From assembly GCA_039683615.1 (NCBI GenBank), contig JBDKRA010000029.1, positions 53,256-117,255 of the forward strand: a stretch of 64,000 bases of DNA. Reading direction: 5' to 3'. The notes under the pieces were generated by a model, which was not told the origin of the DNA, ran no database searches, and was given only the letters and a program-made list of their open reading frames with translations. The position numbers and the translations under genes are program-made. Positions 6,645-41,601 of this stretch are shown here, piece by piece; the stretch's first letter is position 1, and every line of letters starts with the position of its first letter. This DNA comes from Phycisphaerae bacterium. Its GTDB lineage: Bacteria > Planctomycetota > Phycisphaerae > SM23-33.

Positions 6645-8408
6645 TTACGGTTGAGGCGCCGCCGGCGGGGGCGTCTGCGGCGGGGTGACCGCGGGCGCCT
6701 CGGGTGAGGCCGGAGGGGCGGCAGGCTCGGACGCCGCCGGCTGCGTCGCGGCAATGCCCGCCAGCCGGTCGCGCAGGTGCAATACCGGGCGCAAATACGG
6801 CGAGGCCTCACGGCTCTTCATCGCGTCGGCGATGATCTCGTTGGCTTTGCGCAGTTTCTCGGCGTCGTTCTTGAGACGATAGTGCCCCAGGTATGCCGCC
6901 GCCAACTCGCCCTGGTAGATCCAGCGATAGACCTTTTCATTCTCTTTGAGGCCTTGAATGGCCAGTTCGTAATCGCGGATCGTCTCTTCGTAGTTCTTCA
7001 ACGATTCGCCAGCCGTCACGTCGGGATTGCTCAGGTACGCCGCCAGTTCCTGGGCCTCTTTGGGCGCTGTGGCATTGGCAGCGGCCTTGGGCCAGACGTC
7101 GTTGATCGGGGCCTGCAACGCCAGCAGCCGGCGGGCGAAGATAGCCTGTTCGCTCTGGAGACCGGCGATGCGTGCGAGCACGTCGCCCTTTTCGGCCAGT
7201 CCCTCAGCGGTATTGGCGTCGGGGCCGACTAGCGCGTGGCCCAGTTCCGCCTGGCAGTTGCTGTATTCTTTCATCGCCTGGGCCTCATCGGCCTTGGCGC
7301 CCAGGGCCGCCGCGTTGACGGCGGCTACATCTTTGAGGATGGCGTCCTGCGACTCCTTGATGAGCTTGAGGCAGTCTTCTCGCTGCTGGCCGCGGCGGCC
7401 CATCTGTTCTTTGCGGTGTTCGAGCATGCTCTTGGCCATTTCGATCTTGCTGCGGCCGGCGTTGATTCGCACGCCGAGCATGCGGCGCTGTTCGAGCAGT
7501 TGCTGCACCTGGTTCTGGTTGGTGGAGATCTTGCCCTCGATCTGCCGGATCTGGGCTTCGTCTTTGAGCACGTCCTCGATCATGGCCAGGCTCTTGGCCC
7601 CGGTGATCAGACGGCTTTCGGCGCGATTCTGCCGCGCTTTCTGGGACAGGGTTGCGATCTGGTCGCGCAGCGCCGCCACCTCGTTGCCCAGGTAGATGAT
7701 CTGCTTCGAGGCCGCCTCGTGCTCTTTCTCGATGTCAGCCAATTCGGTCGTGGTCTGGTCGACGATCTTCTGCACGTCGTCATCGGGCAGGCTCAGCAGT
7801 TTGTCGTACTGGGCGAGGAACCCCAGTTGCGCCTGCACGACGCCCAGGGTGCGATCGACGCGGTTGGCATCGCGCTGCGCGTTCCAACGCTGGTTGAGCG
7901 CTTTCTGGTCGAAGCAGTAACCGCGCAGCGACATCACGCGAGCGGCCATGTGATGCGCCAAGGCCTTGATGTCCGCAGGGGCCAGGCTGTTATCGGCCAG
8001 GGCCGCTTGCAGGATCGTCTTGGCCTGCGTCAGCGCCGTCTCGGCTTGGGGGTTGACGGCGTTGGGCGCCCTGAGCCTGATGGTCTCACGGGTCACAACG
8101 GGGTCGCCGTCCTTGACAAAGGGTCCGACCCTTCCCGAGACGGAGTCTTCGTGGACAGGGGTGGACAACAGCCCCAGCGCACGCTGATAGAGGGCGTCGG
8201 CGTCGTCGACGGCCGCCACGATGCCGGCGCGGGCCTTATTGACCCCTTCCTCGTTGCGCGTCACGAAGTAGGTGAACCACACCGCCAGCACCACCAGGGC
8301 GATGATGCCGCCCACGGTCAGCAGGACGCTCTGACGGTCCGGAAACAGTTTGCCCGCCGGAGAGGCAGAGCCCGTACGGCGCCCGGATTCCTTGCGGGAT
8401 TCGGTCAT
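6645..8408 (-). CDS. Hypothetical single-pass membrane protein with long coiled-coil periplasmic region and Pro-rich tail
   Basis: Short basic N-terminus, TM segment VLLTVGGIIALVVLAVWFTYFV, heptad-rich Q/E/A/L region, C-terminal PAASEPAAPPASPEAPAVTPPQTPPPAAP. Ends 35 nt upstream of the sigma gene. Confidence 0.6.
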   Translation of the reverse strand: MTESRKESGRRTGSASPAGKLFPDRQSVLLTVGGIIALVVLAVWFTYFVTRNEEGVNKARAGIVAAVDDADALYQRALGLLSTPVHEDSVSGRVGPFVKDGDPVVTRETIRLRAPNAVNPQAETALTQAKTILQAALADNSLAPADIKALAHHMAARVMSLRGYCFDQKALNQRWNAQRDANRVDRTLGVVQAQLGFLAQYDKLLSLPDDDVQKIVDQTTTELADIEKEHEAASKQIIYLGNEVAALRDQIATLSQKARQNRAESRLITGAKSLAMIEDVLKDEAQIRQIEGKISTNQNQVQQLLEQRRMLGVRINAGRSKIEMAKSMLEHRKEQMGRRGQQREDCLKLIKESQDAILKDVAAVNAAALGAKADEAQAMKEYSNCQAELGHALVGPDANTAEGLAEKGDVLARIAGLQSEQAIFARRLLALQAPINDVWPKAAANATAPKEAQELAAYLSNPDVTAGESLKNYEETIRDYELAIQGLKENEKVYRWIYQGELAAAYLGHYRLKNDAEKLRKANEIIADAMKSREASPYLRPVLHLRDRLAGIAATQPAASEPAAPPASPEAPAVTPPQTPPPAAPQP

Positions 8409-8477
8409 GATGAAACCTTTCCAAAAGATACCTTGGCCTTATTCTACTACAGGGACACTTCGGCTGGCGAAGAATCC

Positions 8478-9140
8478 TCACGTTACGGAATCTTCCCCTT
8501 GCCCTGCGGCCGACAGATCGCACACGGCGCGGATCGCCAGGTCGCTGACCCGCGCCAGGTCGATAAACTGCCGGGCGTAGGCCTTGGGCCGGCCTTGCAC
8601 CGCCTGCCAGACCAGCACCGCGCCGCCCTGCGTCTCGATGCTCATCGGCGCCAGCGTGTCGCCGACGACGGCGCCCAATGCCTTGGCCATAGTCCGGTCG
8701 CCGCGGCAGAGCCAACTCTCCTGCCGCCAGTGATGCCGCTGCAGCGCCAGCGGCGCTGCGGGGACATCCTGCTCGTGCCACATCAGCGCCGCCGTCAGAG
8801 GCCGGTCCATCTCGACGACGACCACGCTGTAATGGCGGGCCAAACGGCTGATCCCGTGCCCGCACTCATAGCGAAAGTCGAACGCCCGAACGCTCCGGCC
8901 GTTGACGCGCCCATAGGTCACGTTGTGCGCGCGGGGGCTGTGGCCGCTGGCGATCAGCGCGAACCGTCCGTACAGGCCAGGCAGATCGAACGGGTCGTCG
9001 CGCGAAAACCGCATGTTCAACTGGCGGGCCTGGGCGGCCATGGCCCTGCTGCGCCGCCGCTGGCGGCGGGCCATGACCATGAACGAAACCACAGACCCCC
9101 CCAGCGCGGCCACCAGCAGCACGATCAACAAGTCCTGCAC
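8478..9140 (-). CDS. Hypothetical membrane-anchored protein
   Basis: N-terminal TM segment LLIVLLVAALGGSVVSFMVMA followed by RRQRRRSR. No family recognised. Tightly spaced in the same minus-strand unit. Confidence 0.5.
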   Translation of the reverse strand: MQDLLIVLLVAALGGSVVSFMVMARRQRRRSRAMAAQARQLNMRFSRDDPFDLPGLYGRFALIASGHSPRAHNVTYGRVNGRSVRAFDFRYECGHGISRLARHYSVVVVEMDRPLTAALMWHEQDVPAAPLALQRHHWRQESWLCRGDRTMAKALGAVVGDTLAPMSIETQGGAVLVWQAVQGRPKAYARQFIDLARVSDLAIRAVCDLSAAGQGEDSVT

Positions 9141-9171
9141 ATCGCATCTCGTTTAGGAGGCGGCGGTATTG

Positions 9172-10371
9172 TTATTCCGTCGCGGGGGCGCCTCGCAGGG
9201 CGGGGTCCGCCGGCGGAGCCGCCTTGCCGGCCGGCAGCGTCACCGTCACGCCGTACTGACCGCCCTCGGGCGGACCCTTGAGCGACGAAATCCAGTCCAG
9301 CATCTGCCTGTACGCAGCCGCCTTGACGTCCAGGTACAGCGGCGTCAACTCGCGGCCGGGGTGCACCTGCGTGGGGCGAACAGCTTCCTTGCGCTGCAGG
9401 TAAGTCAGCAGCAGCGAGTCCTCGCGCTGCTGGCGGTCGATCAGCGACCACTGACCGTGGCGGGTCGAGCTAAGGATCAGGAAGTTCGTGTAGTCGACGC
9501 GATCGTTGCGCGCCGGGGTGCCAAGCAATCTGAAATTGCCCTGCCCCCTGGGCCCGCCATGGCACTGGACGGTGGCGCACTGCGTCGCAATGCCCGCCCA
9601 GATGCGGCCTCGGAATTCCTTCAGCGGTTGCGGGTCGCCCAGGAGAAGAACGTCGTTGCGAAGCGGGTCGTTCCACTCGGTGTTCTCGACGATGTACTTG
9701 GCCTTGTCGCCGCTGGACAGGGCGTTGAAGCGGTTCTCGTCGAAGGCGGCGCCGCGGATGTCGTTGCGTCCGCGCATCGCCTTGATGAACTTTTCGAGGA
9801 CATTGTTGCGAAACCGCACCGGCAGGGAATCGCGCTTGGGGCTGAACTCGCCCATGCGGATTTTGTAGATGCCTTCCTGCGTCACCAGCCAGTTCTGGGG
9901 CACCTCCGACGGCAACCCCGCTTCAGGCGGCGCGACCGACACGCCGCCCTGGCCGCCGGCGACAGGGGCATTGAGTTTCTCGTTCACGTGCGCCAGAAGC
10001 GCCTTGGCCATCTCGATATTGGGATCGATCTCGATGGCCTTCTGATATTCGTCGCGGGCGGCGTCGAGCAGGCCTTTCTGCTGGGCCCACTGGCCAAGTT
10101 GCAGATGGGCCCGGGCATCCTTGGCGTCAATCTTGGCGGCCCGCTGGTTGTATTCGTCGATGGGATTGACCTGCTCGATGACTTTCTCGACCTGATCATT
10201 GGTGAACGTCAGCACGGCCATGCGGGTGTCGATTCGATATCCCTCGGGCGTTTTGGTGACTTCGCCCTTGAACGTGCGTCCATCCTTGAGCACCAGAACC
10301 TGGGTGGCGCCTGCCGCCATCGCCGCCAGGATTCCCACCACCGCCAATCCGGCCATCACGTGTCTTAGCAT
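9172..10371 (-). CDS. Hypothetical secreted protein with TPR-like N-terminal region
   Basis: Signal-like segment MLRHVMAGLAVVGILAAMAAGA. Helical-repeat region (AHLQLGQWAQQKGLLDAARDEYQKAIEIDPN). Track ORF extends to 10485 but would overlap the tRNA-Cys, so the start is placed at the internal M. Confidence 0.55.
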   Translation of the reverse strand: MLRHVMAGLAVVGILAAMAAGATQVLVLKDGRTFKGEVTKTPEGYRIDTRMAVLTFTNDQVEKVIEQVNPIDEYNQRAAKIDAKDARAHLQLGQWAQQKGLLDAARDEYQKAIEIDPNIEMAKALLAHVNEKLNAPVAGGQGGVSVAPPEAGLPSEVPQNWLVTQEGIYKIRMGEFSPKRDSLPVRFRNNVLEKFIKAMRGRNDIRGAAFDENRFNALSSGDKAKYIVENTEWNDPLRNDVLLLGDPQPLKEFRGRIWAGIATQCATVQCHGGPRGQGNFRLLGTPARNDRVDYTNFLILSSTRHGQWSLIDRQQREDSLLLTYLQRKEAVRPTQVHPGRELTPLYLDVKAAAYRQMLDWISSLKGPPEGGQYGVTVTLPAGKAAPPADPALRGAPATE

Positions 10372-10460: not shown

Positions 10461-10534
10461 AGGCGGCAGTGGGATTCGAACCCACGAATAACGGATTTGC
10501 AATCCGTCGCCTTGGTCCGCTTGGCTATGCCGCC
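10461..10534 (-). tRNA. tRNA-Cys (GCA)
   Basis: Cloverleaf read by eye: acceptor GGCGGCA/TGCCGCC, T-arm GTGGGTTCGAATCCCAC, anticodon loop TTGCAAA. 74 nt. Confidence 0.85.
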
Positions 10535-10588: not shown

Positions 10589-13500
10589 TTAACGGTTTAG
10601 AATCTGGCGGAGGTCGGCCTTGATCGCGTTGAACCCGGCGTATATGCCGCCGAAGGTCTTGTCGGCGGCCTCGAGGTTGCTGACATACACGCTCAGGTTT
10701 TCGATCTTGCCGCGATAGTCTGCCAGTTTCTTCTCGCGATCGGCGTTGCTCAGCGATGCCAGATCCGCCCTGCCGGGATCGGGGCGGAACGTCTCCAGCC
10801 AGCAGCGGCAGTAGGCCAGTTCCGATTCCCAGTACTGCCCGGCCTGGCGGGCCTTGTCGAATCCCTGGGTCAGGCGCTGGTAGATGGTCAGGGCCTTGTC
10901 GAACATCTTAAGCCCTTCATAGCTGCGCCCCATGCCCCAGAATGTCTTGGCGTCGAAGGCGATGCCCTCTTTCTCTTCGTCGGCCAGCCGGGCCATCAAC
11001 TGCTGATGCCCCCGCAGGCACATGTCGACCAGGCGGGCGACGTTCTGGGTGTCAGGCCTGGACTGCGAGGTCGAGTTTACTTTGCCCAGGGCCTTGCCCA
11101 ATTCGCCGGTGACATTCTTGAGATCTCGCGCGACGAACGAAGAACGTACGAACTCCGGCGGCAATTCATCCACGGTCTTCTTGAGCAGGTCGTATACTTG
11201 CGCCGGATTCTCGCGAACCTGGACCAGGCCCTGCTGGCGCGCATCGAACTTGGCGGCGATAGCGGCTTCCTTGGCCTTGCGATCGGCGTTCTGCGCAGCC
11301 GACACTTCTTCAAAGATCGTGCGCGCGTCGGCGAACCTGGCGGCCTGGATCAGCGCGTCGCCGTAGAGTTGCTTGCGATCCAGCAGCGTCTGCGCATCGG
11401 CATTGTCCTTGGTTTCGTACAACATCTTGGCGAACTTGGCATAGCCCTCGCGGTAGGCCTTCAGTCGCGCCTCGGTGGTAGGCCCGCGAGCGCCCTGGTC
11501 GAGCTGCTTGATTGTCTTCTGGATATTCGTGATGAGCAGGTCGATCAGCGGACCGCCGCGGTCGGGGTATGCTTTCAGGAACTCGTTGAGGGCTTCCAGC
11601 GCCGCCTCGATCTGGGCCGTCTCGATCAGCTTGCGGATGCGGAACTCCATGCTGGCTTCGATGATCGTCGTGCCAGGCCACTTCGTCGGCAACTTCTTGT
11701 CATCCTCAAGTGCCTTGGTCGTGTTGCCTAGATGATTGTATGTCAGCGTGATGACCAGATAATCCGCCCGCGCTCCCCACTCTCGCAGCATCTTCGCCAG
11801 AGTCCCGGCCGAGGGCTTGGACGCTTCCGCCGCAGCCTTCTCGCTGTACTGGCCCGCCTGGAAGACCAGGTCGCGCACTTGCTTGTCCGTCGGCGGAGTC
11901 GTGCTTTCCTTGAGCGCGTCGATATTTTCCGCTTCCAGATCCAATGCCCAGTACTGGGCCTCCATGTAGGCCGCGTGATCGGCTGGGGGAACTTTGCGGA
12001 ACGCCGCAGCCGCCCGAGCGCGAAGGGCAATCTTCTCGTTGAGCATTTCCGCCGTGTCCGGGGTGGCCTCGACCAGGCGCTGCAGTTCCACGCCCAACTC
12101 GAGGTAATGGGTCAGGACAATATTGGGATCCTGACCGCCGGCCGCAGCCGCCTTCTGGGCCGCCTGCACCCACTCGGGTTTTTCCAGCAGCGTCTCCAGC
12201 GCCTTGACATATTCGCGACGCAGGTCCGGACTGATGGAACGCTTCTTCTCCTGCAATTCCCCCACCAGTCCCGAATAGCAGATCACGCCGTTGAAGGCCG
12301 CCGACGGCGCCAAGCCATGGGCGGCGTTCTGTACGGCGATCTCGACATACGACCGCGCCGCCGCCAGCGTCTCATGCTTGACCAGGTCGATCTTCGCCAG
12401 ATACCACAGCGCCTGCGGACGCATCTGTTTGGCGGCCGCGTCGTCCTTGCGCGTCAACAGTTCCTTGAGAGCCTTTTCCGGACCGGCCAGCAGTTGCAGG
12501 CGGTGCGCCTCGGGAAGCTTGTCGTCGCCCCAGGAACGGTAGTTGCCCATGGCCAGCGCCATCAGCACGACGGGGTTGGCTTTCTTGAGCGTCTCGGGAT
12601 CGTCCAGCTTGATGTTGGAGGCATACTTGCGGACGATGACTTCGTACAGCACTTCCTGCACGTCGGTGCGGCCGCTGTACTTGTTGATGAATTGGACCAG
12701 GACGTCCAGCGCCTGGCGCCGGTACTCGGCGGACTTGGCCGCGTCGCCGCCCTTGGCCGCCGCGGCATCCCAGATGTAGCTGCGCAGGATCACGGCGCTG
12801 ACATCCTGCTGCACCTCGATCGCCGCGGCATCTTCGACCCTGGCATTTTGCCGAGCCAGAATGACGGACTTCTTGAAGAAGTCGTCGACGGCCGTCATCG
12901 CATCAGTGTACTTGCCGCCTTGAGCCAGCACGCGCGGGATTTCAAACAACGCCTGGATGCGCGGGGCGGCCGGCGCATCGTTGTCGTCCACCTGCCGCAG
13001 GAGCTTGATCGCCCGGTCGGTCTGGCCCAGGGCGCCGGCGGCCGTGCCTTCCACCAGCAGACCCCGGTACATGTCGATGCCGCTCTTGGCGCACTGGCTG
13101 CCGGCCGCCTGGGCCTTGGTGAGGTAGAGGGCCCGCTCGGGGCTGTTCTCGGGCAGGGCCAGGCCCCGGTAGAGCAATATCCACATCCCCATGCGCAGCA
13201 CTTCGTTGCGGAGTTCCTCGATCTTGCCTTTTTCCAGGTTGTCTTCAAGAGTGGTGCAGTTGTTGATCATGTCCCGCAGTTGATCCTGCAGGTCGACGAT
13301 CAGGGGGGCGGCATTGCGCGTCAGGACCACGATCATGCGGCGGTCTTCATCGGTGCCCCGCAGGAAGATCATGTTCAGGCCGTAGGGCGTCTGCACGCGG
13401 TTCAACCCGCTGATCATGGCTAACTTGAACTGCTCCGAACAGTAGGTCATCTGCGACTTGAGATTGTTGGGCTTGGCGGCGGTCTTGGCGGCCTCGACCA

Positions 13501-13867
13501 CCCGAAGCTGCCGCACGACCGCGTCATTGAGCCACGCCAGCCGCTGGTCCTGGCTGAAGGGCTGGTCCATGTCGGTGGCCTTGGCGACCAGCGAACTGAT
13601 GGCGATGACGTCCTGGGCGACGCCGCCCTGCTTGGCCAGCAGCGACTGCTGGTATTCGACGATTTCCCACATCCCCATGTCCTGCATCAGGCGGTGCAGG
13701 CCAACGAGGTCGATGCCCTGCATCGCGCCGGCTTCGGGCGCCGCCGACGAGTTGCCGCCGGCGCCTTCGTCCTGGGCCAAGGCCCCCCCCGTCGCCAGCG
13801 CTGCGGCCAGCACACTCACTGCCACGCGTGATTTCCAACCGCCCTTAGGCATGGTCGATATCCTCAT
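10589..13867 (-). CDS. Large secreted TPR/helical-repeat protein (1092 aa)
   Basis: Signal peptide AVSVLAAALATGGALAQ. Long helical repeat-rich sequence. No catalytic motif. Ends 15 nt after the first ExbD gene. Confidence 0.7.
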   Translation of the reverse strand: MRISTMPKGGWKSRVAVSVLAAALATGGALAQDEGAGGNSSAAPEAGAMQGIDLVGLHRLMQDMGMWEIVEYQQSLLAKQGGVAQDVIAISSLVAKATDMDQPFSQDQRLAWLNDAVVRQLRVVEAAKTAAKPNNLKSQMTYCSEQFKLAMISGLNRVQTPYGLNMIFLRGTDEDRRMIVVLTRNAAPLIVDLQDQLRDMINNCTTLEDNLEKGKIEELRNEVLRMGMWILLYRGLALPENSPERALYLTKAQAAGSQCAKSGIDMYRGLLVEGTAAGALGQTDRAIKLLRQVDDNDAPAAPRIQALFEIPRVLAQGGKYTDAMTAVDDFFKKSVILARQNARVEDAAAIEVQQDVSAVILRSYIWDAAAAKGGDAAKSAEYRRQALDVLVQFINKYSGRTDVQEVLYEVIVRKYASNIKLDDPETLKKANPVVLMALAMGNYRSWGDDKLPEAHRLQLLAGPEKALKELLTRKDDAAAKQMRPQALWYLAKIDLVKHETLAAARSYVEIAVQNAAHGLAPSAAFNGVICYSGLVGELQEKKRSISPDLRREYVKALETLLEKPEWVQAAQKAAAAGGQDPNIVLTHYLELGVELQRLVEATPDTAEMLNEKIALRARAAAAFRKVPPADHAAYMEAQYWALDLEAENIDALKESTTPPTDKQVRDLVFQAGQYSEKAAAEASKPSAGTLAKMLREWGARADYLVITLTYNHLGNTTKALEDDKKLPTKWPGTTIIEASMEFRIRKLIETAQIEAALEALNEFLKAYPDRGGPLIDLLITNIQKTIKQLDQGARGPTTEARLKAYREGYAKFAKMLYETKDNADAQTLLDRKQLYGDALIQAARFADARTIFEEVSAAQNADRKAKEAAIAAKFDARQQGLVQVRENPAQVYDLLKKTVDELPPEFVRSSFVARDLKNVTGELGKALGKVNSTSQSRPDTQNVARLVDMCLRGHQQLMARLADEEKEGIAFDAKTFWGMGRSYEGLKMFDKALTIYQRLTQGFDKARQAGQYWESELAYCRCWLETFRPDPGRADLASLSNADREKKLADYRGKIENLSVYVSNLEAADKTFGGIYAGFNAIKADLRQILNR

Positions 13868-13882
13868 CGTGAAATAACTCCA

Positions 13883-14284
13883 TCAAACGCCCGCAAGCAA
13901 AATCACGTCCGGCACCTTGGCTCGATGGACGGCGTTGACGGCCTCAACGACGTGATCCCACGCCACGTCGCCGTCGGTGCGCACCCGGATTTCCAGCCGA
14001 AGGCCCGCAACCTTCTGTCGTACGATTTCCTGATAGAGGTCCTGGGCGTCGCTGGCCCAGAACGTGGTGCCGTCGATACGATATACCGCTGCATCACCCT
14101 GGGCCCCCACCCGCAGCGTCAACTGCCGCACCATATCCAAACCGCCGCCTCCGCCGGGCAGGGCGGCCGGAATCAGCCCTTCCGTGGGGCGCATCTGAAA
14201 CCCGATCAGGAAGAAGATCAGGAGCTGGAAGGTCACGTCGATCATCGGCGTCAGGCTCAAAGCGGATGTTCGCGGACTTTTCAT
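13883..14284 (-). CDS. exbD: Biopolymer transport protein ExbD/TolR family (paralog 1)
   Basis: LTPMIDVTFQLLIFFLIGFQ TM helix typical of ExbD/TolR. Start placed at MKSP. Confidence 0.8.
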   Translation of the reverse strand: MKSPRTSALSLTPMIDVTFQLLIFFLIGFQMRPTEGLIPAALPGGGGGLDMVRQLTLRVGAQGDAAVYRIDGTTFWASDAQDLYQEIVRQKVAGLRLEIRVRTDGDVAWDHVVEAVNAVHRAKVPDVILLAGV

Positions 14285-14306
14285 ATCCGTCTCCCCGAAA
14301 CGGCGG

Positions 14307-14810
14307 TCAACTGCTGCCGCTTGGCGCAAAGGCCACATTCTTGAGCCCCGCACGCACGGCGGCGTTGAAGGCCTCGACGACAAACTCCCATTGCACGTCC
14401 CCTTCGGCGCGGATCACGACGGGAACCTTATCGGAACCCTGGCTGCTTCTCTGCGCTTCCAGATGACGTTTCAATTCTTCAGAATCAGTGGTCTCGATCA
14501 GCGTCTGTTCGATCTGGTAGACGGCCTGATCTTTCTCCTCGCCCTGCGGGCGGACGCGGACGAAGACCGTCTTGAAGATATTCTGTTGGTCGACGCTGCC
14601 GATGCCTTCGGCAGGCAGCGAGGAGGGGATCAGCCCTTCCGTCTCGCGCATCTGAAAGCCGATCAGGAAGAAGATGATGAGCTGAAAGGTCACGTCGATC
14701 ATCGGCGTCATCGGCGGTTGCATGGCGCCGGAGGGCGGCTTGCGCTTCTTGCGGGGCGGAATATAATGGACGGCTTCTTCGCCCTGAATCTTTTTTACCG
14801 ATTTGGCCAT
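14307..14810 (-). CDS. exbD: Biopolymer transport protein ExbD/TolR family (paralog 2)
   Basis: MTPMIDVTFQLIIFFLIGFQ; basic cytoplasmic N-terminus. Confidence 0.85.
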   Translation of the reverse strand: MAKSVKKIQGEEAVHYIPPRKKRKPPSGAMQPPMTPMIDVTFQLIIFFLIGFQMRETEGLIPSSLPAEGIGSVDQQNIFKTVFVRVRPQGEEKDQAVYQIEQTLIETTDSEELKRHLEAQRSSQGSDKVPVVIRAEGDVQWEFVVEAFNAAVRAGLKNVAFAPSGSS

Positions 14811-14813
14811 GGG

Positions 14814-15368
14814 TTATTCGCTTCCCCTCTTAGGCAAGGCCGTGATGTTCATCTTGGGGATCCTGGCCCCCAGTCCGGCCATGATCACCGGCTCGACGTC
14901 GGACCATCGCGTGCGCTTATCGGCGCGGACAACCATGGTGAAGTCTTTTTCGGGCTTGTCGGCCGCCCGCGCGGCATTCTTGCGATCTTCCAGCATGGGC
15001 ACCATCATGGCGACGGCGTTGTCCGGCTTGATCTCTTGCTTGCGCAGGTTGCTCTGGCGTGAAGGCATGCGGATCATATAGTATTCCACGCGCCCTCGCA
15101 GATAGCTGGGGACCGCCTGTCCTTTGTACTTCATGGCCGAGTCTTCGGAGACCACGTTGACGATGACGTGGTTTCCGGCCTTGTTGACCGCCTGGTCATT
15201 CAGGGCTTGGCTGACCTTCGGGCGCGACAGGGCGATCCGCAAGTCCAGTTCGTCCGACGCGCTCTGGCCGGAGAGCATGAAGAAAATGATCAACTGGAAC
15301 GTGACGTCGATCATCGGCGTCATGTTCATGTCGGCCTTGCTGTCGGCAAATATGTTTTTCTTGGCCAT
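14814..15368 (-). CDS. exbD: Biopolymer transport protein ExbD/TolR family (paralog 3)
   Basis: MTPMIDVTFQLIIFFMLSG; 3-nt gap to paralog 2. Confidence 0.85.
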   Translation of the reverse strand: MAKKNIFADSKADMNMTPMIDVTFQLIIFFMLSGQSASDELDLRIALSRPKVSQALNDQAVNKAGNHVIVNVVSEDSAMKYKGQAVPSYLRGRVEYYMIRMPSRQSNLRKQEIKPDNAVAMMVPMLEDRKNAARAADKPEKDFTMVVRADKRTRWSDVEPVIMAGLGARIPKMNITALPKRGSE

Positions 15369-15396
15369 AGCAGTTTCTCCCCGGCCGCCGACCGCT

Positions 15397-16038
15397 CTAG
15401 CTGCGCCCGGCGGGACGGAACGTCGCGATCAATTCCTGGCACGTGGTCATCGCCTCGCTGGTCAGCGAGTCGATGCGGTTGCGCAGGAAGGTAAAGCACG
15501 ACAGCACGGGAATGGCGATCATCAGCCCTTCCAGCGTCGTCACCAGGGCCAGACCGATGGGCTTGGCGATGGCCGAAGCCTCGACGGTGCCCATGCGCAC
15601 GATATCAAAGAAGGCCATGATCATGCCTTGCACCGTCCCCAGCAGCCCCAGCATCGGACCGACGTTTCCGATCAGGTTGAGCCACTCGATGGTTCGCAGC
15701 AGCTTGGTGGTGCGCTCCTCGGCGGCCTCTTCCATGGCGCGCTCCATGGCGGGGTATCCGTGGGCGGCCTCGTTGAGCGCCGCATGCATGACGTAGCCCA
15801 TGAAGCTGGGCTCATTTTCCGTCAGGTCGATCACGGCGCGATACTGGCGCTCTTCAAACATCTGCTGGATCTGCTCGCGCAGGGCCGGGGGCATGATGTT
15901 CATGCGACGCACCATCATGATGTATTGCACCATCAGCGCCACGGCCAGGACGCTCAGAAGCCAGAGCACCCAGCCGACGAAACCGCAGTCGAGAAACAAA
16001 GCCGAAAACCATGTCATTTGCTGTTGTTGTGCGAGCAT
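15397..16038 (-). CDS. exbB: MotA/TolQ/ExbB proton-channel family protein
   Basis: Three TM helices and the PMLGLLGTVQGM...GLALVTTLEGLMIAIPVL signature of ExbB/TolQ. Confidence 0.88.
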   Translation of the reverse strand: MLAQQQQMTWFSALFLDCGFVGWVLWLLSVLAVALMVQYIMMVRRMNIMPPALREQIQQMFEERQYRAVIDLTENEPSFMGYVMHAALNEAAHGYPAMERAMEEAAEERTTKLLRTIEWLNLIGNVGPMLGLLGTVQGMIMAFFDIVRMGTVEASAIAKPIGLALVTTLEGLMIAIPVLSCFTFLRNRIDSLTSEAMTTCQELIATFRPAGRS

Positions 16039-16102
16039 GCGCCAATCTCCGTAAAAGTTCCTGCTGGGGACGCTACGGCTCGGCCGCGCGTCGCTGGGTG
16101 TC

Positions 16103-17173
16103 TTACTTAAGCCGGGTCAAAGCCTGGCGGGCCGCCGTGGACGTCACCGTCCGAGGGTAATCGTTGAGGATCTTCTGGTAACACTTCTTCGCCGCGGCGG
16201 TATTGGGGGTCTTGAACGATTCATTGGCCTGGCCGGCCAGGTACAGCGCGCGGGCCTTGTCATCCTCGCCGGCGCCGCCGAGCATCAGCACGCGCATGGC
16301 GTTGAGCCCCGCCTGGCAAAGCAGGGTCTGCTGCTGGGCGCCGGCCGCTGCCTGTCCCAGCGTCAACTGCGCCTGCCCCATCGCCAGCAGGGCCCGGACC
16401 AGTTCGGTCTGGTTGAACTGCTCCATCAGCGGCTGCAGCGCCGCGACCGCCTTGTCGGGCTGCTGGCTCTTGAGGAACTGCTCGGCGGCCTCGATCTTGC
16501 TGACAAACGCCACGCGCCCCCCGTCGGCGGTGTTGGTGTCGGGCTGAGCGGCGCGGCTGATTTTTTCGGCCAGCGTGGCGGCCTCGGCGTCGCGCCCCTG
16601 AATCTGCAGGAGTTTCATGCGATACGGATCGACCGCGCTGCGATACGCGGGGCTGGTCTGCGAGTCCTTGCCCGCCAGCAACTCGATGGCTCGATCGGCC
16701 GCGTCGCTCTTTTCCTTGGGAAGGGGCGGGCGCAGGGCAATGGTCTCCTTCGAGGCGCTGTTGGCGTCCATCAGCGACAGCCACGCCGCCACGGCCCGGT
16801 CGATCTGGCCCGCTCGCACGGCCGCAGAGAGCATGCGGTGGGAAATCAGCGGTTTCAGCCAGGCTTTATCTTCGGGGGCGGGCTTCTTGAGCAACTGCTC
16901 GTACGCGGACAGGGCCTGATCGTACTGCCGCTCTTTCACGAGCTTTTCGGCCGCATCCAGGTCAGGAACGCCGCTGATGGAGATTTCCTTCAGATCGGCG
17001 ATCGAGCCGATGATCTGCTTCATGGTCGGCAGGCGGAAGTAGATGATGCAGTCTTTGACGTCGGTGACGACGATGCCTTCGCCATAGGGCAGTTTGAGCG
17101 TGATCGAGTCGGCCCGCGCAGCGACGCCGCTCATCAAGATCGCGCCGGCAACAATGGCTGCTATGTGTTTCAT
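16103..17173 (-). CDS. Secreted TPR-repeat protein
   Basis: Signal peptide AIVAGAILMSGVAARA. TPR-like helical repeats. 3-nt gap to the upstream VWA gene. Confidence 0.7.
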   Translation of the reverse strand: MKHIAAIVAGAILMSGVAARADSITLKLPYGEGIVVTDVKDCIIYFRLPTMKQIIGSIADLKEISISGVPDLDAAEKLVKERQYDQALSAYEQLLKKPAPEDKAWLKPLISHRMLSAAVRAGQIDRAVAAWLSLMDANSASKETIALRPPLPKEKSDAADRAIELLAGKDSQTSPAYRSAVDPYRMKLLQIQGRDAEAATLAEKISRAAQPDTNTADGGRVAFVSKIEAAEQFLKSQQPDKAVAALQPLMEQFNQTELVRALLAMGQAQLTLGQAAAGAQQQTLLCQAGLNAMRVLMLGGAGEDDKARALYLAGQANESFKTPNTAAAKKCYQKILNDYPRTVTSTAARQALTRLK

Positions 17174-17176
17174 GGC

Positions 17177-18325
17177 TTACTCTTGGCCGGAAATAAACTT
17201 ATATTTGCCGCCATTTTCCTTGGCGATGGTCTGCAGCACTTCGACAGCCACGGGCGGCTTGTTGCCGTAGAGGAACGTGTTGACGTGCACGTCCCGGCGG
17301 ATGTTCAGCGCCCGGATGGTCGCCAAGGCCTTCTCGTTGTCTGGGAAGACGCCGTCGGTCAACAGAAACAACAACTTGCCTTCCAGCTTCGGATTGGCCG
17401 CGGCCAGCACCGCAAAGGCCCGCTTCAGCGCTGGGATCGGGTCGGTCTGGGCCTGGGCCTGCACTTCCTTGAGGAACTTGACGGCCTCGAGCTTGGACGC
17501 TTCGGTCGCCGAGACGAGTTTCTTGGAGGGCGGTTCCAGCGGCGCGCCTTCGGCGAAAAGGATGATGTGGAAGTCCTGGCTGGACTGGAGACGCCCCATC
17601 GATGCGGCGCACTCTCGCTTGACCAGGTCAAAGCTGTCGCTCATGGAGCCCGAGCGGTCGATGACGTACACGATATGGTGGGCATTGCCGCCGCTGCCGA
17701 ACAGCCCCGCGCCGGGCGCCCCGGCGCCGCCGGCCAGGCCCGCCACCGGGCTGCCGCTACCGGCGCTGCCGCCCTGGGCGTACACGGCAATCTGCTTGTT
17801 GGTGCGGCTGGCGTCGGTGATCAGGGCCGACTCTTTCTTGGAGTAGTTCGGCGAGGCGGCCTTGGGACGGTTGCTCATGGCCTTGGCGGTCTGCTCGCGA
17901 GTGCTGAAGCTGCCGCCGGGGTTTTCGCTCAGCGTGGCCGAGGGGACCAGCACCTTCTTGGGATCGATGGGCGGATTGATCACCATCACCACCAGGAAGA
18001 ACATGATCAGCGCCAGCGCCGCGTGCAGGAACAGGCTGACGACCCAGGGCATCGAGCGGGCCATGACGATCATCATGGCTTCATCGCGATGGCTGCCCTC
18101 TTCTTCCAGAGGCTCTTGGTCTTCCGGGGCCGGCGGAGGCGTCTGAGAAGACGTCGCCACGACGCCGCGTTCGGCGTTGGGCGGCACGTGCGGGCGAGGC
18201 AGAGCGGCCAGTCCCGCCGGAACCACCGTCATCTTTTGACAATGGGGACAGCGGGCCGACTTGCCGATCTCGCCTTCAAGCCGCACCATCTGTCCGCAAT
18301 GTTCGCACCGGAAGTCCGCAGCCAT
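17177..18325 (-). CDS. Zinc-ribbon / single-TM / Pro-rich linker / von Willebrand factor A domain protein
   Basis: N-terminal CxxC...CxxC (CEHCG...CPHCQ), TM helix VVSLFLHAALALIMFFLVVMV, then a VWA domain (VYVIDRSGSMSDSFD... LLFLLTDGVFPDNE). Confidence 0.8.
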   Translation of the reverse strand: MAADFRCEHCGQMVRLEGEIGKSARCPHCQKMTVVPAGLAALPRPHVPPNAERGVVATSSQTPPPAPEDQEPLEEEGSHRDEAMMIVMARSMPWVVSLFLHAALALIMFFLVVMVINPPIDPKKVLVPSATLSENPGGSFSTREQTAKAMSNRPKAASPNYSKKESALITDASRTNKQIAVYAQGGSAGSGSPVAGLAGGAGAPGAGLFGSGGNAHHIVYVIDRSGSMSDSFDLVKRECAASMGRLQSSQDFHIILFAEGAPLEPPSKKLVSATEASKLEAVKFLKEVQAQAQTDPIPALKRAFAVLAAANPKLEGKLLFLLTDGVFPDNEKALATIRALNIRRDVHVNTFLYGNKPPVAVEVLQTIAKENGGKYKFISGQE

Positions 18326-18393
18326 GTCAATCTCCCTGCAACAAACGACCCTATTCTAGCGGATGTTTCGCCGCTAATGCAACCGGCTTATTC

Positions 18394-19491
18394 TCATTCC
18401 GCTTTCACGTTAAAGAAGCCACCATGGTTTTCGGCCGCTATCGTCTTGAGCGTGCTTTCGGCCACGCCCGAGCGGCCGCCGTAGAGGTAAGTGTTGACCT
18501 GCACGAACCGCTGGGGATTCAACGCCCGCACGAGACCCAGGGCCTTGGCACTATCGGGAAACTCCCCGTCGGTGAGCAGGTGCACCAACTGCCGTCGCGT
18601 GGGACCGCGGGAGGCCTTGAGAACCGCAAAGGCCCGCTTCAGCGCCGGCTGCGGGTCGGTCTGGCCCGTGGGCTTAACCTGGAACAGGAACCGCGCCAAG
18701 GCCAGGCGGACCTCATCCGTCGGGGCCGCCAGGTTCGGGCGAAACTCGATAGGCACGCCGCTGTCAAACAACACCACCGCGAAGCGCTGACGGGGGCTCA
18801 GACGCGCGACCTCGCGATTGATCTGGTCGCAGAGATAGCTGAACGTGTCGGACATCGACCCGCTGCGGTCGATCACAAAAACGGTGTCGTCCGGAGGCAA
18901 CCCGTCAGGCACGCGAGGGCCGCCGCCGGGTTTGTCTGCCGTGCCTATGCGGAATATCGCGCCGTCGCCCGGTGTGGGCCGCCCGCTCTGGATCAGCCCC
19001 GGGGCAAGAATGCGGACATCGGGTTTGAGCTTGTCCGGCCGGCCCGGATCCACAAGCTCAGGCTTCTTCCAGACCCGGTCGGAGGGGGCGTCAAGCCGGG
19101 TCGATTCACGACCCGTGTCGGTCAGCTTCACCAGGTCACGGAAACGTATCGACGGTGCACTGTTGTAACCACTCTGCACCTGCGCCGGCGGCTCGGGCTT
19201 CTGCGTCACCATGACGACCACCAGCATCAGGACCAGGCCCAGCGACAGGTGCAGCAGTCCGCTCACCAGCCACGGGAACATCCGCGCAAGCAATCCGTCA
19301 GCCGCGGCGCAGCGCTGCAACTCGCGCTGCTCCTGCTCTTGCGGCGGGGCATCGGGAATCACAGTCACGGGCATGGCCGCGATGGCCTGGGGAACGTAAA
19401 CGTCGCGCCCGCATGCGCACCGCCCGCGCCGGGACCTCGAACCGATCAGCATCTTCCGCCCGCACCGGTCACACTGAACTGGAATCTTCAT
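18394..19491 (-). CDS. Zinc-ribbon / single-TM / VWA domain protein (paralog)
   Basis: CDRCG...CACG zinc ribbon, TM helix WLVSGLLHLSLGLVLMLVVVMV, VWA domain (VFVIDRSGSMSDTF... LVHLLTDGEFPDS). Start set at MKIP. Confidence 0.8.
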   Translation of the reverse strand: MKIPVQCDRCGRKMLIGSRSRRGRCACGRDVYVPQAIAAMPVTVIPDAPPQEQEQRELQRCAAADGLLARMFPWLVSGLLHLSLGLVLMLVVVMVTQKPEPPAQVQSGYNSAPSIRFRDLVKLTDTGRESTRLDAPSDRVWKKPELVDPGRPDKLKPDVRILAPGLIQSGRPTPGDGAIFRIGTADKPGGGPRVPDGLPPDDTVFVIDRSGSMSDTFSYLCDQINREVARLSPRQRFAVVLFDSGVPIEFRPNLAAPTDEVRLALARFLFQVKPTGQTDPQPALKRAFAVLKASRGPTRRQLVHLLTDGEFPDSAKALGLVRALNPQRFVQVNTYLYGGRSGVAESTLKTIAAENHGGFFNVKAE

Positions 19492-19708: not shown

Positions 19709-19790
19709 GCGAGGGTGGCGGAATTGGCAGACGCGCCAGGTTTAGGTCCTGGTCCCGAAAGGGATGTGGGTTCGAGTCCCTCCCCTCGCA
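19709..19790 (+). tRNA. tRNA-Leu (TAG)
   Basis: Acceptor GCGAGGG/CCCTCGC, long variable arm, anticodon loop TTTAGGT, T-loop GGTTCGAGTCC. 82 nt. Confidence 0.85.
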
Positions 19791-19797: not shown

Positions 19798-19905
19798 TAA
19801 TCGGTAGCCCGTAGCCAGTGGCGGGCAGAAACAAGACTCTGTCGAGAAGGTCTTTCCTGGCTACTGGCGACTGGCTACCGGCTCACTAGCTACGGTTCCT
19901 ACCGG
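19798..19905. repeat. Long imperfect palindromic GTAGCC-rich repeat element, copy 2
   Basis: AATCGGTAGCCCGTAGCCAGTGG ... CCTGGCTACTGGC...GGCTACCGG. Related to 2113-2226. Its right arm encodes the last ~15 codons of the GT2 gene (…VASEPVASRQ). Confidence 0.6.
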
Positions 19906-21387
19906 TTCACGGCGGGCCTGGAAGCTCAGCACCGACACGTAGAAAAACCCGAAGGCGAAGATGACCAGGAACGGGCTGCCCAGCAGGCCCCACACGCTGG
20001 CCATCGACAGCAGGGCGCACGCGCCGAGGTAGATGCCAAACCCCATCTCGACGTATGGCAGCCAATGGTTCTTGCGCTTGGGTCGAACGCCGCCCGTCGT
20101 AACGCCCCCGCCGTTGGCGGAGCTGCAGCCGTACTTGGGGGTGCGAACAAACTCGCTGCGCTTGCCCAGCACCGCTTCAAAAATAGCCTTGGTGTTGGAG
20201 ATGCACATTCCCACGCCCAGGGCCATCAGCATCGGCATGAACTTGAACGCCGTGCGCCAGTCGCGGAAAAGCTGGAACTGGCTGGCGGCGTAGAACACCG
20301 TCGCCGACAGCGTCGCCAGCGTGAACACCGTCATGTCAAACAGCGTGAGCCAGACGTTGACTTCGCCATGGGCCGACGCCCGCACGCACGCGGCCGGAAA
20401 CAACAGCAACACCAGCAGGGCCATGTAGAAATGCAGCGTGAAACCCGTCAGGTGGAAGAACCCCTCGATCTTGACCTTCAGCGGGGCCTTGGACAGCAGC
20501 AATCGCGGGAGCATTTTCAACGCCGTCTGCGCGCCGCCCTTGGTCCAGCGGAACTGCTGGGCCTTGAAGGCGTCCATCTCCGGCGGCAGTTCGGCCGGAC
20601 TGGCCAGCTCGGGCAGGAAGACGAACTTCCAGCCCTTGAGCTGAGCACGGTAGGACAGGTCGAGGTCTTCGGTCAGCGTGTCGTTGCGCCAGCCGCCGGC
20701 GTCTTCGATGGCCTTGCGCCGCCACGTGCCGGCCGTGCCGTTGAAGCTCATGAACCGGTCGCTGCGGTTGCGAGCGACGTGCTCGATCATGAAATGCCCG
20801 TCGAGGAACATCGCCTGGCTGCGGGTGAGCAGGCTGTCGTTGCGGTTGAGATGCTCCCAGCGCGTCTGCACGACGCAGACTTTCGGGTCGGTGAAGTAAT
20901 GCACGCTGCGCTGGAGGATGTCCGGCGGGGGAATGAAATCGGCGTCGAAGATCGTGACGAACTCGCCGGTAGCGCTCTTGAGCCCGTTCTCCAGCGCGCC
21001 GGCCTTGTAGCCCTGGCGGTTGGTGCGATGAACGAAGCTGACATCGAACCCGCGGGCGCGGCAGCTTTCGACCGTCCGACGGCAGATCTCGGTCGTCTCG
21101 TCGGTGCTGTCGTCGAGGACCTGGATTTCCATGCGGTCGCGCGGGTAGTCGATCAGGCACGTCTGCTCGATGATCCGCTGGGCGACCAGACTCTCGTTGA
21201 ACATCGGCAACTGCACCGTCACGCGCGGCAGCGGGTCGAACGTCGACGGCGGCGTGGGCACGTTCTTGCGATGGCGGAAGTACAGAATCACCAGCACCCA
21301 GCGGTGCAGGCCGTACATCGAGACCACCACCAACGCCAGGGTGTAGACGGTAACGAGAAACGATTGTCCCAGTTCCAGCAAGTTCAT
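19861..21387 (-). CDS. Family 2 processive glycosyltransferase (cellulose/hyaluronan/glucomannan-synthase-like), multi-TM
   Basis: DxD-type motifs (LDDSTDET, FDADF), TED, and the QQFRWTKG (QxxRW) processivity motif. N- and C-terminal TM helices. Confidence 0.85.
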   Translation of the reverse strand: MNLLELGQSFLVTVYTLALVVVSMYGLHRWVLVILYFRHRKNVPTPPSTFDPLPRVTVQLPMFNESLVAQRIIEQTCLIDYPRDRMEIQVLDDSTDETTEICRRTVESCRARGFDVSFVHRTNRQGYKAGALENGLKSATGEFVTIFDADFIPPPDILQRSVHYFTDPKVCVVQTRWEHLNRNDSLLTRSQAMFLDGHFMIEHVARNRSDRFMSFNGTAGTWRRKAIEDAGGWRNDTLTEDLDLSYRAQLKGWKFVFLPELASPAELPPEMDAFKAQQFRWTKGGAQTALKMLPRLLLSKAPLKVKIEGFFHLTGFTLHFYMALLVLLLFPAACVRASAHGEVNVWLTLFDMTVFTLATLSATVFYAASQFQLFRDWRTAFKFMPMLMALGVGMCISNTKAIFEAVLGKRSEFVRTPKYGCSSANGGGVTTGGVRPKRKNHWLPYVEMGFGIYLGACALLSMASVWGLLGSPFLVIFAFGFFYVSVLSFQARREPVGTVASEPVASRQ

Positions 21388-21488
21388 GTGAGGCCTCAAG
21401 GGCACCGTGCCCCGCTGCATCGGCGGATAATACTAGTCACACCCGCCCCCGCCGTCAATAGGTTGGTCGTAATTGCCCTGTGGGCGTT

Positions 21489-21902: not shown

Positions 21903-22023
21903 GCGTGTTCTCCGGCTGAACGCTCAACCCTGAATCATGAGCCGCACACAATCGACCCTTGCGGTCGTGAGGCGCCGAAAACTCGGCGCCTCACGCGCAA
22001 GCGGCTGCACTCACTCAATTTTC

Positions 22024-22818
22024 TTAAGCTGGCTGCAACTCTTTTCTTCGTTTGTCCAGTTGGCTCTTGAGGCGTTCCAGGACGGCTGAGTGCATCTGGC
22101 TGACGCGGCTTTCGGAGAGGTCGAGCGTCTGGCCGATCTCTTTCATCGTCATCTCTTCGTAGTAGTACAGGACGATGATGAGCCGTTCGGCGCGGCTGAG
22201 GCCGCGCGTCAGGAGGTCCTTGATGTCCTTGCCCTGGGCGACATGCAGCGGGTCGTCGCTGCGCTTGTCTTCGAGCACGTCGATCTCGCGCACGTCCTTG
22301 CTCGAGTCGGTCTCGAACCACTTGCGGCTCAGCGAGACCTGCCCCACCGTCGCGGCGTCGCGCTTGACCTTCTCGAACTCGCTCATCGACAGCTTCATGC
22401 GCTTGGCCAATTCTGAATTGGTCGGGCTGCGTCCGAGTTGCGCCTCGAGCTCGCGCGAGGCGAGATTGAGCTTGTGAGCGCGGCTGCGGACGAGGCGCGG
22501 CACCCAGTCCATCGATCGCAATTCGTCGAGGATGGCCCCGCGGATGCGCGGACTGCAATACGTCTCGAACTTGACGCCGCGGCCTTCGTCGAACGCCGTC
22601 AGCGCGTCCATCAGCCCGAAGATGCCGGCCGAAATCAGATCGTCGACGTCAACCTCTTCCGGCAGCTTGGTGTACACCCGCTCGGCCGTGTACTTCACAA
22701 GCGGCAGGTAGTACTCCAACAGTTGGTTGCGCGACTCTTCGTCGGCAGTTTTTCTGAACTGTTTCCACCAATGTTCGAGTTGCTCTGGAGACAACTTCTT
22801 CCGTGCTACTGGCGGCAT
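22024..22818 (-). CDS. fliA: Flagellar sigma factor FliA (sigma-28)
   Basis: Sigma-70 regions 2, 3 and 4 in a ~260-aa protein (LISAGIFGLMDALTAFD, FETYCSPRIRGAILDELR, MKEIGQTLDLSESRVSQMHSAVLERLK). Lies beside the flagellar operon. Confidence 0.85.
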   Translation of the reverse strand: MPPVARKKLSPEQLEHWWKQFRKTADEESRNQLLEYYLPLVKYTAERVYTKLPEEVDVDDLISAGIFGLMDALTAFDEGRGVKFETYCSPRIRGAILDELRSMDWVPRLVRSRAHKLNLASRELEAQLGRSPTNSELAKRMKLSMSEFEKVKRDAATVGQVSLSRKWFETDSSKDVREIDVLEDKRSDDPLHVAQGKDIKDLLTRGLSRAERLIIVLYYYEEMTMKEIGQTLDLSESRVSQMHSAVLERLKSQLDKRRKELQPA

Positions 22819-22859
22819 GATAGGCTCCTTCCATCAATGCCCAGGCCATCCTTGGCCAT

Positions 22860-23031
22860 GTGCCTGATGATATTAACAATGCGATAAGTGCTCATCAAGT
22901 TCCTTTGTGACATTATCTTAGGAAATTGGAAATTTTTTTTCGTTACGCGGATCATATTACCCATGTTCTACATGTTATGTATATTCTATACACTACCTAT
23001 ATTCTGTCAAGCCACTTTATGAAATATTCTT
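22860..23031. promoter_or_regulatory. AT-rich island between flhG and fliA (candidate fliA promoter/regulatory region)
   Basis: ~170 bp of <40% GC in a ~65% GC background (…ttatgtatattctatacactacctatattctgtcaag…). Confidence 0.4.
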
Positions 23032-27838: not shown

Positions 27839-27850
27839 TCAAACAACTCA

Positions 27851-28008
27851 CCACAGAGGCACAGAGGGCGCAGAGGTAAGAAACAAAACAAGAACCGGGT
27901 GGCATGGCGACATGCGTTGCTGTTCCTTGCGGGTCACCATGCCACCCGTCGCTCGCATCCATCCTGTTGTTGCTTTTTCATTCACTCGTTCTTCTCTGTG
28001 CCTCTGTG
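27851..28008. repeat. Nested palindromic element in the fliR-flhB intergenic region
   Basis: Outer 16-bp inverted repeat CCACAGAGGCACAGAG / CTCTGTGCCTCTGTGG. Inner inverted repeat CGGGTGGCATGGCGAC / GTCACCATGCCACCCG. Shares the GAAACAAAA..GTCGCCATGCCACCCG word with 30331-30362. Confidence 0.6.
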
Positions 28009-28020
28009 GTCAGTCTTTCT

Positions 28021-29054: not shown

Positions 29055-29056
29055 CG

Positions 29057-30318: not shown

Positions 30319-30330
30319 GGCGACCCGCTT

Positions 30331-41566: not shown

Positions 41567-41601
41567 CCACAGAGACACGGAGGGGGATGAGGTAAAAACA
41601 G

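Follow-up and report, generated by a model that had tools for sequence, protein, structure and literature searches.

If an operon encodes a motor of the ExbB/ExbD type but neither TonB nor TolA, which of its proteins might take the transducer's place? The question is raised by eight minus-strand open reading frames (ORFs) at 10589-19491 of a 64,000-nucleotide stretch of DNA from a Phycisphaerae bacterium (GenBank assembly GCA_039683615.1, contig JBDKRA010000029.1, positions 53,256 to 117,255), which we call the window. In order of transcription they encode two VWA-domain proteins (VWA1 and VWA2), a small TPR protein of 356 residues (TPR356), one ExbB, three ExbDs and a giant TPR-like protein of 1092 residues (TPR1092). 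A preliminary description of the locus, made from the sequence alone, had proposed an uncharacterised energy-transducing machine in which VWA-headed proteins are driven by the ExbB/ExbD motor. Our answer is that, on balance, the two VWA proteins are probably motor-coupled transducers of a trans-envelope machine of the Ton/Tol type, powered by the proton-motive force (PMF), with VWA heads replacing those of TonB and TolA. Domains, transmembrane (TM) motif and gene linkage all agree with the proposed machine; the idea itself, on the other hand, was already in print. The class is not new, and the operon encodes a zinc-ribbon variant, with an intact metal ion-dependent adhesion site (MIDAS), of the vWA force-transducer systems proposed in PMC12204202 (Mol Biol Evol 2025).

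The motor and its candidate transducers

Is the motor one that could drive such proteins? All eight ORFs are present where they had been described, 3-68 nt apart on the minus strand, and their third-position GC contents (GC3, 0.74-0.85) have the bias of real genes. Searches with the hidden Markov models of Pfam and NCBIfam returned VWA, MotA_ExbB, ExbD and TPR domains, the Pfam hits matching the gene order of the preliminary description, and did not return TonB_C. The TolQ/ExbB-type proton-channel subunit (15397-16038; MotA_ExbB, E 8e-26) has three TM helices in a TM scan. Its closest solved sequence is that of E. coli TolQ (8odt, E 1.5e-9), to which the pore Thr motifs GLLGTVQGM and ALVTTLEGL both align. 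The three ExbD/TolR paralogs comprise a D1 type with an extra insertion (paralog 1, 14814-15368; Pfam ExbD, E 4.5e-13), a D2 type (paralog 2, 14307-14810; E 5.8e-17) and a D2-like extra copy (paralog 3, 13883-14281; E 5.7e-13), the start of which is ambiguous and may lie as far up as 14383. The sequence TPMIDVTFQL, with the proton-binding Asp, is invariant in all three, and paralogs 2 and 3 share FFLIGFQMRxTEGLIP. The residues needed for a proton-driven 5:2 stator, pore Thr and Asp, are present, as the stator proposed for these proteins would require.

Paralog 2 found no match among PDB sequences at E<=0.01. The motor proteins score above the cutoffs of their Pfam families. In NCBIfam they lie nearest to TolQ and TolR, yet all equivalog scores fall far under the cutoffs; by this measure of sequence, therefore, the motor is neither orthodox TolQ/R nor orthodox ExbB/D. 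Five of the relatives described below (L001, L011, L012, L023 and L035) also have a third ExbD, the others having two; a tree of ExbDs collected by regular expression missed most D1-type genes. In locus L035 (7133-19542), from a groundwater MAG (metagenome-assembled genome), the module is expanded to three genes for VWA proteins, two for small TPR proteins and three for ExbD, all consecutive.

What could the motor act upon? VWA2 (17177-18325; Pfam VWA_3, E 9e-9) is 100% identical to a MAG protein at NCBI that bears just the label 'VWA domain-containing protein'; most of its homologs are from MAGs of Phycisphaerae and other Planctomycetota. We scored its conservation over 103 aligned full-length homologs with identities of 37-70%. 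The zinc ribbon (nt 18230-18316), with weak zinc-ribbon matches at residues 4-31, has four Cys that are conserved in 100% of the homologs. It is followed, on the putative cytoplasmic side, by a conserved VPxGLAxLPxPxVP motif and then by the TM helix (nt 17978-18064). This helix reads MPWxxSxFxH, with S97 in 98% and H101 in 97% of the homologs, an S-x3-H signature that the preliminary description had overlooked. Beyond the linker (nt 17678-17977) lies the VWA domain (nt 17180-17677). Its MIDAS is complete, D223-S225-S227-T294-D324, with the first Asp and the two Ser conserved in 100%, the Thr in 98% and the last Asp in 100% of the homologs.

VWA1 (18394-19491; Pfam VWA_2, E 7e-14) may have a longer form that begins at a TTG at 19581. 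Its zinc ribbon (nt 19402-19479), TM helix (nt 19204-19287, with S77-x3-H81) and VWA domain (nt 18397-18888, with a DRSGS MIDAS) follow the same plan and, when aligned to the VWA2 family, it retains the S, the H, the DxSxS, the T and the D. Two details of the preliminary description hold for one paralog each. The CxxC...CxxC ribbon assigned to both is borne out by the four Cys of VWA2, whereas VWA1 reads CxxC...CxC; the Pro-rich linker assigned to both is found in VWA1 (103 residues, 17% Pro), whereas the 98 residues of VWA2 are rich in Gly, Ser and Ala, with 8% Pro.

The AlphaFold 2 (AF2) model of VWA2, built on 35 sequences, places a zinc ribbon at residues 1-35 (predicted local confidence, pLDDT, ~85), a single long helix at residues 80-116 (~90), a disordered stretch at residues 123-212 (<50), which corresponds to a linker of ~95 residues, and the VWA domain at residues 217-380 (>90). 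The predicted layout agrees with the TonB/TolA-like topology claimed earlier. In Foldseek the head matches the VWA domains of ITIH1, CaV alpha2delta and 4fx5 (E 2e-12 to 1e-9), all of them ligand-binding MIDAS/VWA domains. By sequence, the closest match of the zinc ribbon is archaeal Rpo12. In two Phycisphaerae loci (L019, 1-1464; L022, 8420-10516) a VWA domain 50-56% identical to the head of VWA2 is fused to an FGE-sulfatase-like domain; these proteins have no zinc-ribbon/TM anchor and there is no ExbB nearby.

Might a TonB or TolA domain be hidden in one of the other proteins? With a match limit of E<=0.1 in Pfam and NCBIfam, we found no TonB_C or TolA domain in the eight operon proteins, as had been claimed for the unit, nor in 30 other ORFs of the window. 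A cryptic domain of this kind in the TPR or VWA proteins, which the preliminary description had set beforehand against its own proposal, did not emerge: neither the high-confidence model of TPR356 nor the family profile of TPR1092 revealed a cryptic TonB/TolA C-terminal domain (CTD). The window ORFs scanned gave no match to TolB, to the OmpA family including Pal, or to a TonB-dependent transporter (TBDT).

The two TPR proteins have cleavable signal peptides and no lipobox Cys, as read directly from their sequences. TPR356 (16103-17173) has weak Pfam TPR matches and a sub-threshold NCBIfam match to YbgF; its AF2 model (pLDDT 93.4) consists of a five-stranded beta domain (residues 22-65) and a TPR solenoid (residues 70-355). 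The family to which it belongs has no Pfam model. An exhaustive search of 1.84 billion representatives counted 173 clusters (at 50% identity) at E<1e-30 and ~520 at E<1e-10, where a word-indexed search returned 2 hits for TPR356 itself and 3 for a profile of 18 sequences. An Asp at the mature N-terminus is invariant in this family. TPR1092 (10589-13867; Pfam TPR_6 above cutoff) is encoded by the last gene of the core module. Its family profile matched only PPR/TPR designs in the PDB, and Pfam returned only TPR/HEAT on 11 members of the family.

Conservation of the gene neighbourhood

Is the association of VWA proteins and motor a peculiarity of this genome? To answer this we assembled 85 loci from look-ups of three homologs of ~40% identity and from a scan in which each GTDB species was represented by one genome. 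The same gene order was found in >25 independent MAG loci, and the arrangement is therefore far beyond chance. The series VWA-(TPR)-ExbB-ExbD-ExbD-giant TPR recurs across Phycisphaerae and Pirellulales. In about 20 MAGs of the Phycisphaerae type it begins with genes for HIT, a family-2 glycosyltransferase (GT2), tRNA-Leu (on the opposite strand), VWA, VWA and small TPR, and continues with ExbB, ExbD, ExbD (at times a third), giant TPR, tRNA-Cys and three more genes.

Two distant loci are the most telling. In L038, on a closed MAG chromosome of Phycisphaerales (CP070827), the genes for VWA, TPR, ExbB, ExbD, ExbD and a 939-aa TPR protein stand between unrelated flanks; its VWA protein has no zinc ribbon and retains W-x2-S-x3-H. 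In L044, from a Pirellulales MAG, a zinc-ribbon VWA, ExbB, ExbD, ExbD and an 819-aa TPR protein are encoded in succession, and the flanks again differ. In these and other relatives the ExbD genes are followed by that of a TPR protein of ~820-1260 aa. The neighbourhood check thus shows VWA, motor and TPR genes to stay linked in two classes of Planctomycetota, even where the flanking genes are different.

Does the motor go with the helix? We counted loci with >=3 kb of downstream sequence, scoring an ExbB gene within 5 kb on the same strand. ExbB lies downstream in 30 of the 37 loci whose VWA protein has the S-x3-H helix, as against 4 of the 33 in which no helix was detected. In three of those four (L001, L034 and L040) the ExbB/ExbD linkage and the family-level identity of the VWA domain suggest that the helix was probably missed by the motif detector. 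The W-x2-S-x3-H helix is kept in distant relatives without a zinc ribbon, and the ribbon together with the Pro motif is limited to one large clade (21 of the 37 motif-bearing loci).

Known systems, mechanism and role

How does the operon compare with the systems already proposed? The authors of PMC12204202 searched beside motor genes in species without TolA or TonB and, by genomics and AlphaFold 3 (AF3) only, proposed 'vWA force transducers' that adjoin TPR, tolQ and two tolR genes in bacteria of the Planctomycetes-Verrucomicrobia-Chlamydiae (PVC) group. In these a TM helix bearing an SHLS motif is joined by a disordered linker to a vWA domain at the C-terminus; they occur in Proteobacteria, Planctomycetes, Verrucomicrobia, Bacteroidetes and Rhodothermaeota. 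The AF3 models dock the His-bearing helix on the motor; phenotypes are reported for none. The type locus, that of Tichowtungia aerotolerans, has two transducers. Like the proteins of our operon, they have an S-x3-H helix, a disordered linker of ~100 residues and a C-terminal VWA fold, and both systems combine two transducer paralogs with tolQ-like, heterologous tolR-like and TPR genes and with no TonB/TolA CTD. Beyond the Ser and the His, our proteins match the SHLS motif in part: the L at H+7 is found in VWA1, and the S at H+11 in neither.

The differences are several. The N-terminal tail of the Tichowtungia type member is short and lacks a zinc ribbon, where VWA2 has an invariant ribbon and a Pro motif; the VWA domain of the type member lacks DxSxS (it reads 'FIDADKRM') and carries long insertions, where ours has a complete MIDAS. 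The VWA genes of the operon lie upstream of TPR-tolQ-tolR and those of the type downstream. Unlike the type, the operon also has a third ExbD gene and a conserved gene for a TPR protein of ~1000 aa that closes the module. BLASTP of VWA2 against the type transducer, the sequence of which comes from a supplement read by optical character recognition, gave E 0.19, which is not significant; hhalign gave a probability of 94.8% and E 5e-8 over 96 columns, covering an 'FFG' motif that precedes the VWA domain and the first half of that domain. Judged by sequence, the window's VWA proteins and the Tichowtungia type appear to be remote homologs of common architecture, ours belonging to a distinct clade. 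The second class in PMC12204202, the TPH-vWA family (Idiomarina type), has a VWA helix with an ExbD-like Asp and no exbD or tolR nearby. We rejected membership of that family: the TM helices of the operon's VWA proteins, ARSMPWVVSLFLHAALALIMFFLVVMV and ARMFPWLVSGLLHLSLGLVLMLVVVMV, contain no Asp, and three ExbD genes are adjacent.

With the Ton and Tol systems the operon shares the pore Thr of MotA/TolQ/ExbB, the Asp of ExbD/TolR and a single-pass S-x3-H partner with an extended linker; its small TPR gene may be akin to CpoB/YbgF, which belongs to the tol-pal operon. Our operon differs from these systems in having no TonB_C or TolA_C domain, and in its VWA head, two transducers, three ExbDs and cytoplasmic zinc ribbon.

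The Agl-Glt machinery of Myxococcus includes AglR/AglQ/AglS, GltG/GltJ (GltJ with an N-terminal zinc finger, which recruits a regulator), GltD/E/C as TPR proteins and CglB as a VWA adhesin (PMC11761067). The likeness to our operon lies in one TolQ-like subunit, heterologous TolR-like subunits, two single-pass transducers, large periplasmic TPR proteins and a MIDAS VWA effector. In Myxococcus, however, the VWA protein is an outer-membrane lipoprotein, whereas here the domain is fused to the transducer, and the operon is without TonB-CTD-like, GYF or FHA domains and without Glt outer-membrane genes. The zinc ribbon had no sequence match to that of GltJ (7zok). The GltJ-like topology proposed earlier survives as a plan of zinc ribbon, TM helix and periplasmic domain; the ribbon itself is nearest to Rpo12, not GltJ. 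Among NCBIfam gliding families the TPR proteins had no hit, and the sole hit of VWA2 was to CglD (E 0.037). We regard Agl-Glt, so far as sequence comparison can tell, as a functional parallel without detectable homology.

How, then, might the machine work? An ExbB pentamer would surround an ExbD dimer, probably a D1/D2 heterodimer as in AglQ/AglS, with paralog 3 as an alternative D2. Like TonB and TolA, the VWA proteins may use the S-x3-H helix to dock on the pentamer from outside. The stator would be rotated by the flow of protons, which would pull upon the linker. Through its MIDAS metal the VWA head would bind an acidic residue in some periplasmic or outer-membrane partner, and to this partner the pull would be delivered. 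TPR356, which may be CpoB-like, and TPR1092 may be periplasmic scaffolds or themselves ligands of the VWA heads; the invariant mature N-terminal Asp of TPR356 is a speculative candidate for the MIDAS ligand. The zinc ribbon and Pro motif could be where a cytoplasmic partner docks or exerts control, as their conservation in one clade and the analogy with GltJ suggest.

Several points weigh against the coupling of the VWA proteins to the motor. The support for it is computational throughout. The structure models are of single chains, and both the contact between VWA helix and ExbB and the N-in topology, with the zinc ribbon in the cytoplasm and the VWA domain in the periplasm, are ones that we infer. 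Within the close clade the entire region is collinear, ribosomal genes included, and there synteny alone is weak evidence. In 7 of the 37 loci the motif-bearing VWA gene has no ExbB within 5 kb downstream (in L073 it lies upstream instead); one of the seven, L017 (285-2114), is a second, unlinked gene with zinc ribbon, S-x3-H and VWA in the MAG that also carries L012. The TonB negative covers ORFs of the window, and a canonical TonB may be encoded elsewhere in the genome. Finally, the homology to the published type member is remote only.

What would the machine do? Our confidence in any one biological role is well below that in motor coupling. The most likely role, and the weakest step of the argument, is a housekeeping function of the envelope (outer-membrane tethering, constriction or maintenance). 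We favour it because the module lies in a core-genome context, is spread through the phylum and includes a small, perhaps CpoB-like TPR protein in a phylum recorded as lacking Pal; the supplement of PMC12204202 records no Pal in Planctomycetes. In its full form the proposal is tentative, and we would sooner expect it to fail in some part than to hold entire: the module may be the Planctomycetota counterpart of Tol-Pal/Ton, a phylum-wide PMF machine whose MIDAS-VWA domain grips a partner in the periplasm or outer membrane (maybe the Asp of TPR356, or TPR1092) for outer-membrane tethering, constriction or macromolecule uptake in bacteria without Pal and FtsZ, and which is coupled through its zinc ribbon and Pro motif to a positioning factor in the cytoplasm.

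Could the machine serve import? As in Ton, the motor and transducer would power the uptake of macromolecules, for example polysaccharides, the VWA domain engaging an outer-membrane channel or fibre and not a TonB box. The evidence at the level of mechanism is the same as for an envelope role, no TonB_C is found in the window, and according to PMC6474216 it is not known by which route Planctomycetes achieve the 'selfish' uptake of polysaccharides. However, neither in nor beside the conserved module is there a gene for an outer-membrane beta-barrel, a TBDT-like protein or glycan utilisation, and in its core-genome context the module stands next to ribosomal and rpoA genes. We consider import unlikely.

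Is the neighbourhood perhaps a coincidence, the ExbB/ExbD motor serving a TonB encoded elsewhere and the VWA and TPR proteins forming an independent, Bat-like complex that shares the operon? Clusters of the Bat type combine VWA with TPR genes and have no motor; there, as in our operon, membrane-anchored VWA proteins are encoded beside TPR proteins, and the Bat operon is not known to encode ExbB/ExbD. A canonical TonB beyond the window and the unlinked VWA paralog L017 would both suit such an explanation. On the other hand, the cluster and its flanks (window 4936-27054) gave no match to BatA_N, BatD, MoxR (AAA_3) or DUF58, and the TM helix carries a TonB-type motif. The Bat-type cluster with a coincidental motor, which the preliminary description had itself put forward as the contrary case, was rejected as an identity for the operon. 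It would be difficult to account for a polar Ser-x3-His pair kept at 97-98% inside a TM helix if there were no motor partner, and the association of motif with ExbB (30/37 against 4/33) and its persistence across classes with different flanks (L038, L044) argue in the same direction. We judge coincidence somewhat more unlikely again than import.

The least likely of the three is adhesion or gliding of the Agl-Glt kind, in which TolQ and heterologous TolRs would drive two transducers that carry regulatory domains in the cytoplasm, with a CglB-like VWA adhesin fused to them, along large periplasmic TPR proteins: the parts lists run parallel (PMC11761067) and the same idea is raised in PMC12204202, but against it stand the Rpo12-like ribbon without a match to GltJ, the want of gliding hits for the TPR proteins and the marginal CglD hit of VWA2, the Glt TonB-CTD-like ends and outer-membrane barrel genes that were not found in the operon, the full flagellar export cluster of the window and the spread of the module over lineages without known gliding.

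If the VWA proteins are indeed transducers coupled to the motor, the consequence would be a broader one. Ton and Tol are the two textbook routes by which energy passes from the inner to the outer membrane, and both use heads of the TonB/TolA fold; a third type of head, the metal-dependent VWA domain, would widen the principle. Since Planctomycetota reportedly have no Pal and no established route of macromolecule uptake, the module is a concrete candidate for either job, envelope or uptake. It offers testable handles in the Ser and His of the helix, the intact MIDAS, the clade-specific zinc ribbon and Pro motif and the Pfam-less family of small TPR proteins. Versions of it are found in Pirellulales; this order belongs to the class Planctomycetia, which offers model planctomycetes that are genetically tractable.

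Neighbouring genes and other features of the window

What is to be made of the genes on either side? Downstream, on the minus strand, lie g437 (9172-10368), g220 (8478-9140) and g587 (6645-8408), which together occupy 6645-10368 and are co-conserved in about 15 loci by tblastn synteny, in the close clade only; they are not adjacent to the module in L038 and L044. The product of g437 has a signal peptide, TPR as its sole Pfam family and a C-terminal CATVQCH (CX4CH); that of g220 is a TM protein of 220 aa and that of g587, of 587 aa, has TM and coiled-coil segments. None of the three could be assigned to a family. Whether the three belong to the machine is uncertain. TPR356 and g437 have N-termini that are alike by eye (signal peptide, beta domain, TPR), and paralogy was rejected at a BLASTP E of 0.5.

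Directly upstream of the operon is the gene of the multi-TM GT2 (19861-21420, minus strand; Glyco_tranf_2_3, E 1e-30), which is conserved there in the close clade and does not stand beside the module in L038 or L044. A synthase-type exopolysaccharide system of GT2 and TPR protein was rejected on this ground and because a beta-barrel part is missing from the giant TPR protein.

ARAGORN places a tRNA-Cys(GCA) gene (10461-10534, minus strand) downstream of the giant TPR gene and a tRNA-Leu(TAG) gene (19709-19790, plus strand) upstream of the operon on the opposite strand. The bracketing by these tRNAs reported in the preliminary description is therefore real, but has no significance beyond conserved synteny. 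Both lie at the same positions in L001, L002 and L004, where the VWA protein is ~40% identical; they are thus old syntenic neighbours and not the borders of a genomic island, a possibility that we rejected. Synteny of tRNA and protein genes around the operon is unusually stable.

Flagellar genes precede the block in the window, whereas ribosomal and rpoA genes occupy that place in the relatives; for this reason we rejected a link of the operon to the flagellum. A scan of the locus for promoters and terminators gave signals no higher than those of shuffled controls. Directly downstream of the conserved block, at 4936-6609 (minus strand), is the gene of a 557-aa protein of the sigma-70 family, which has an extra helix-turn-helix in its long N-terminal extension. 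Further off, at 39437-45368, a glycyl-radical (PFL-like) enzyme, an unassigned 586-aa ORF and a radical SAM protein of the Radical_SAM_N type are encoded together, unrelated to the operon. The flagellar export cluster (~22000-35100) includes FliI, FliP, FliR, FlhB, FlhA, FlhF, FlhG and a FliA-like sigma factor. Within it, a single ORF of 634 aa (33219-35123, minus strand) matches both YscJ_FliF and FliG_N/M/C, and is either a FliF-FliG fusion or the result of a missed frameshift.

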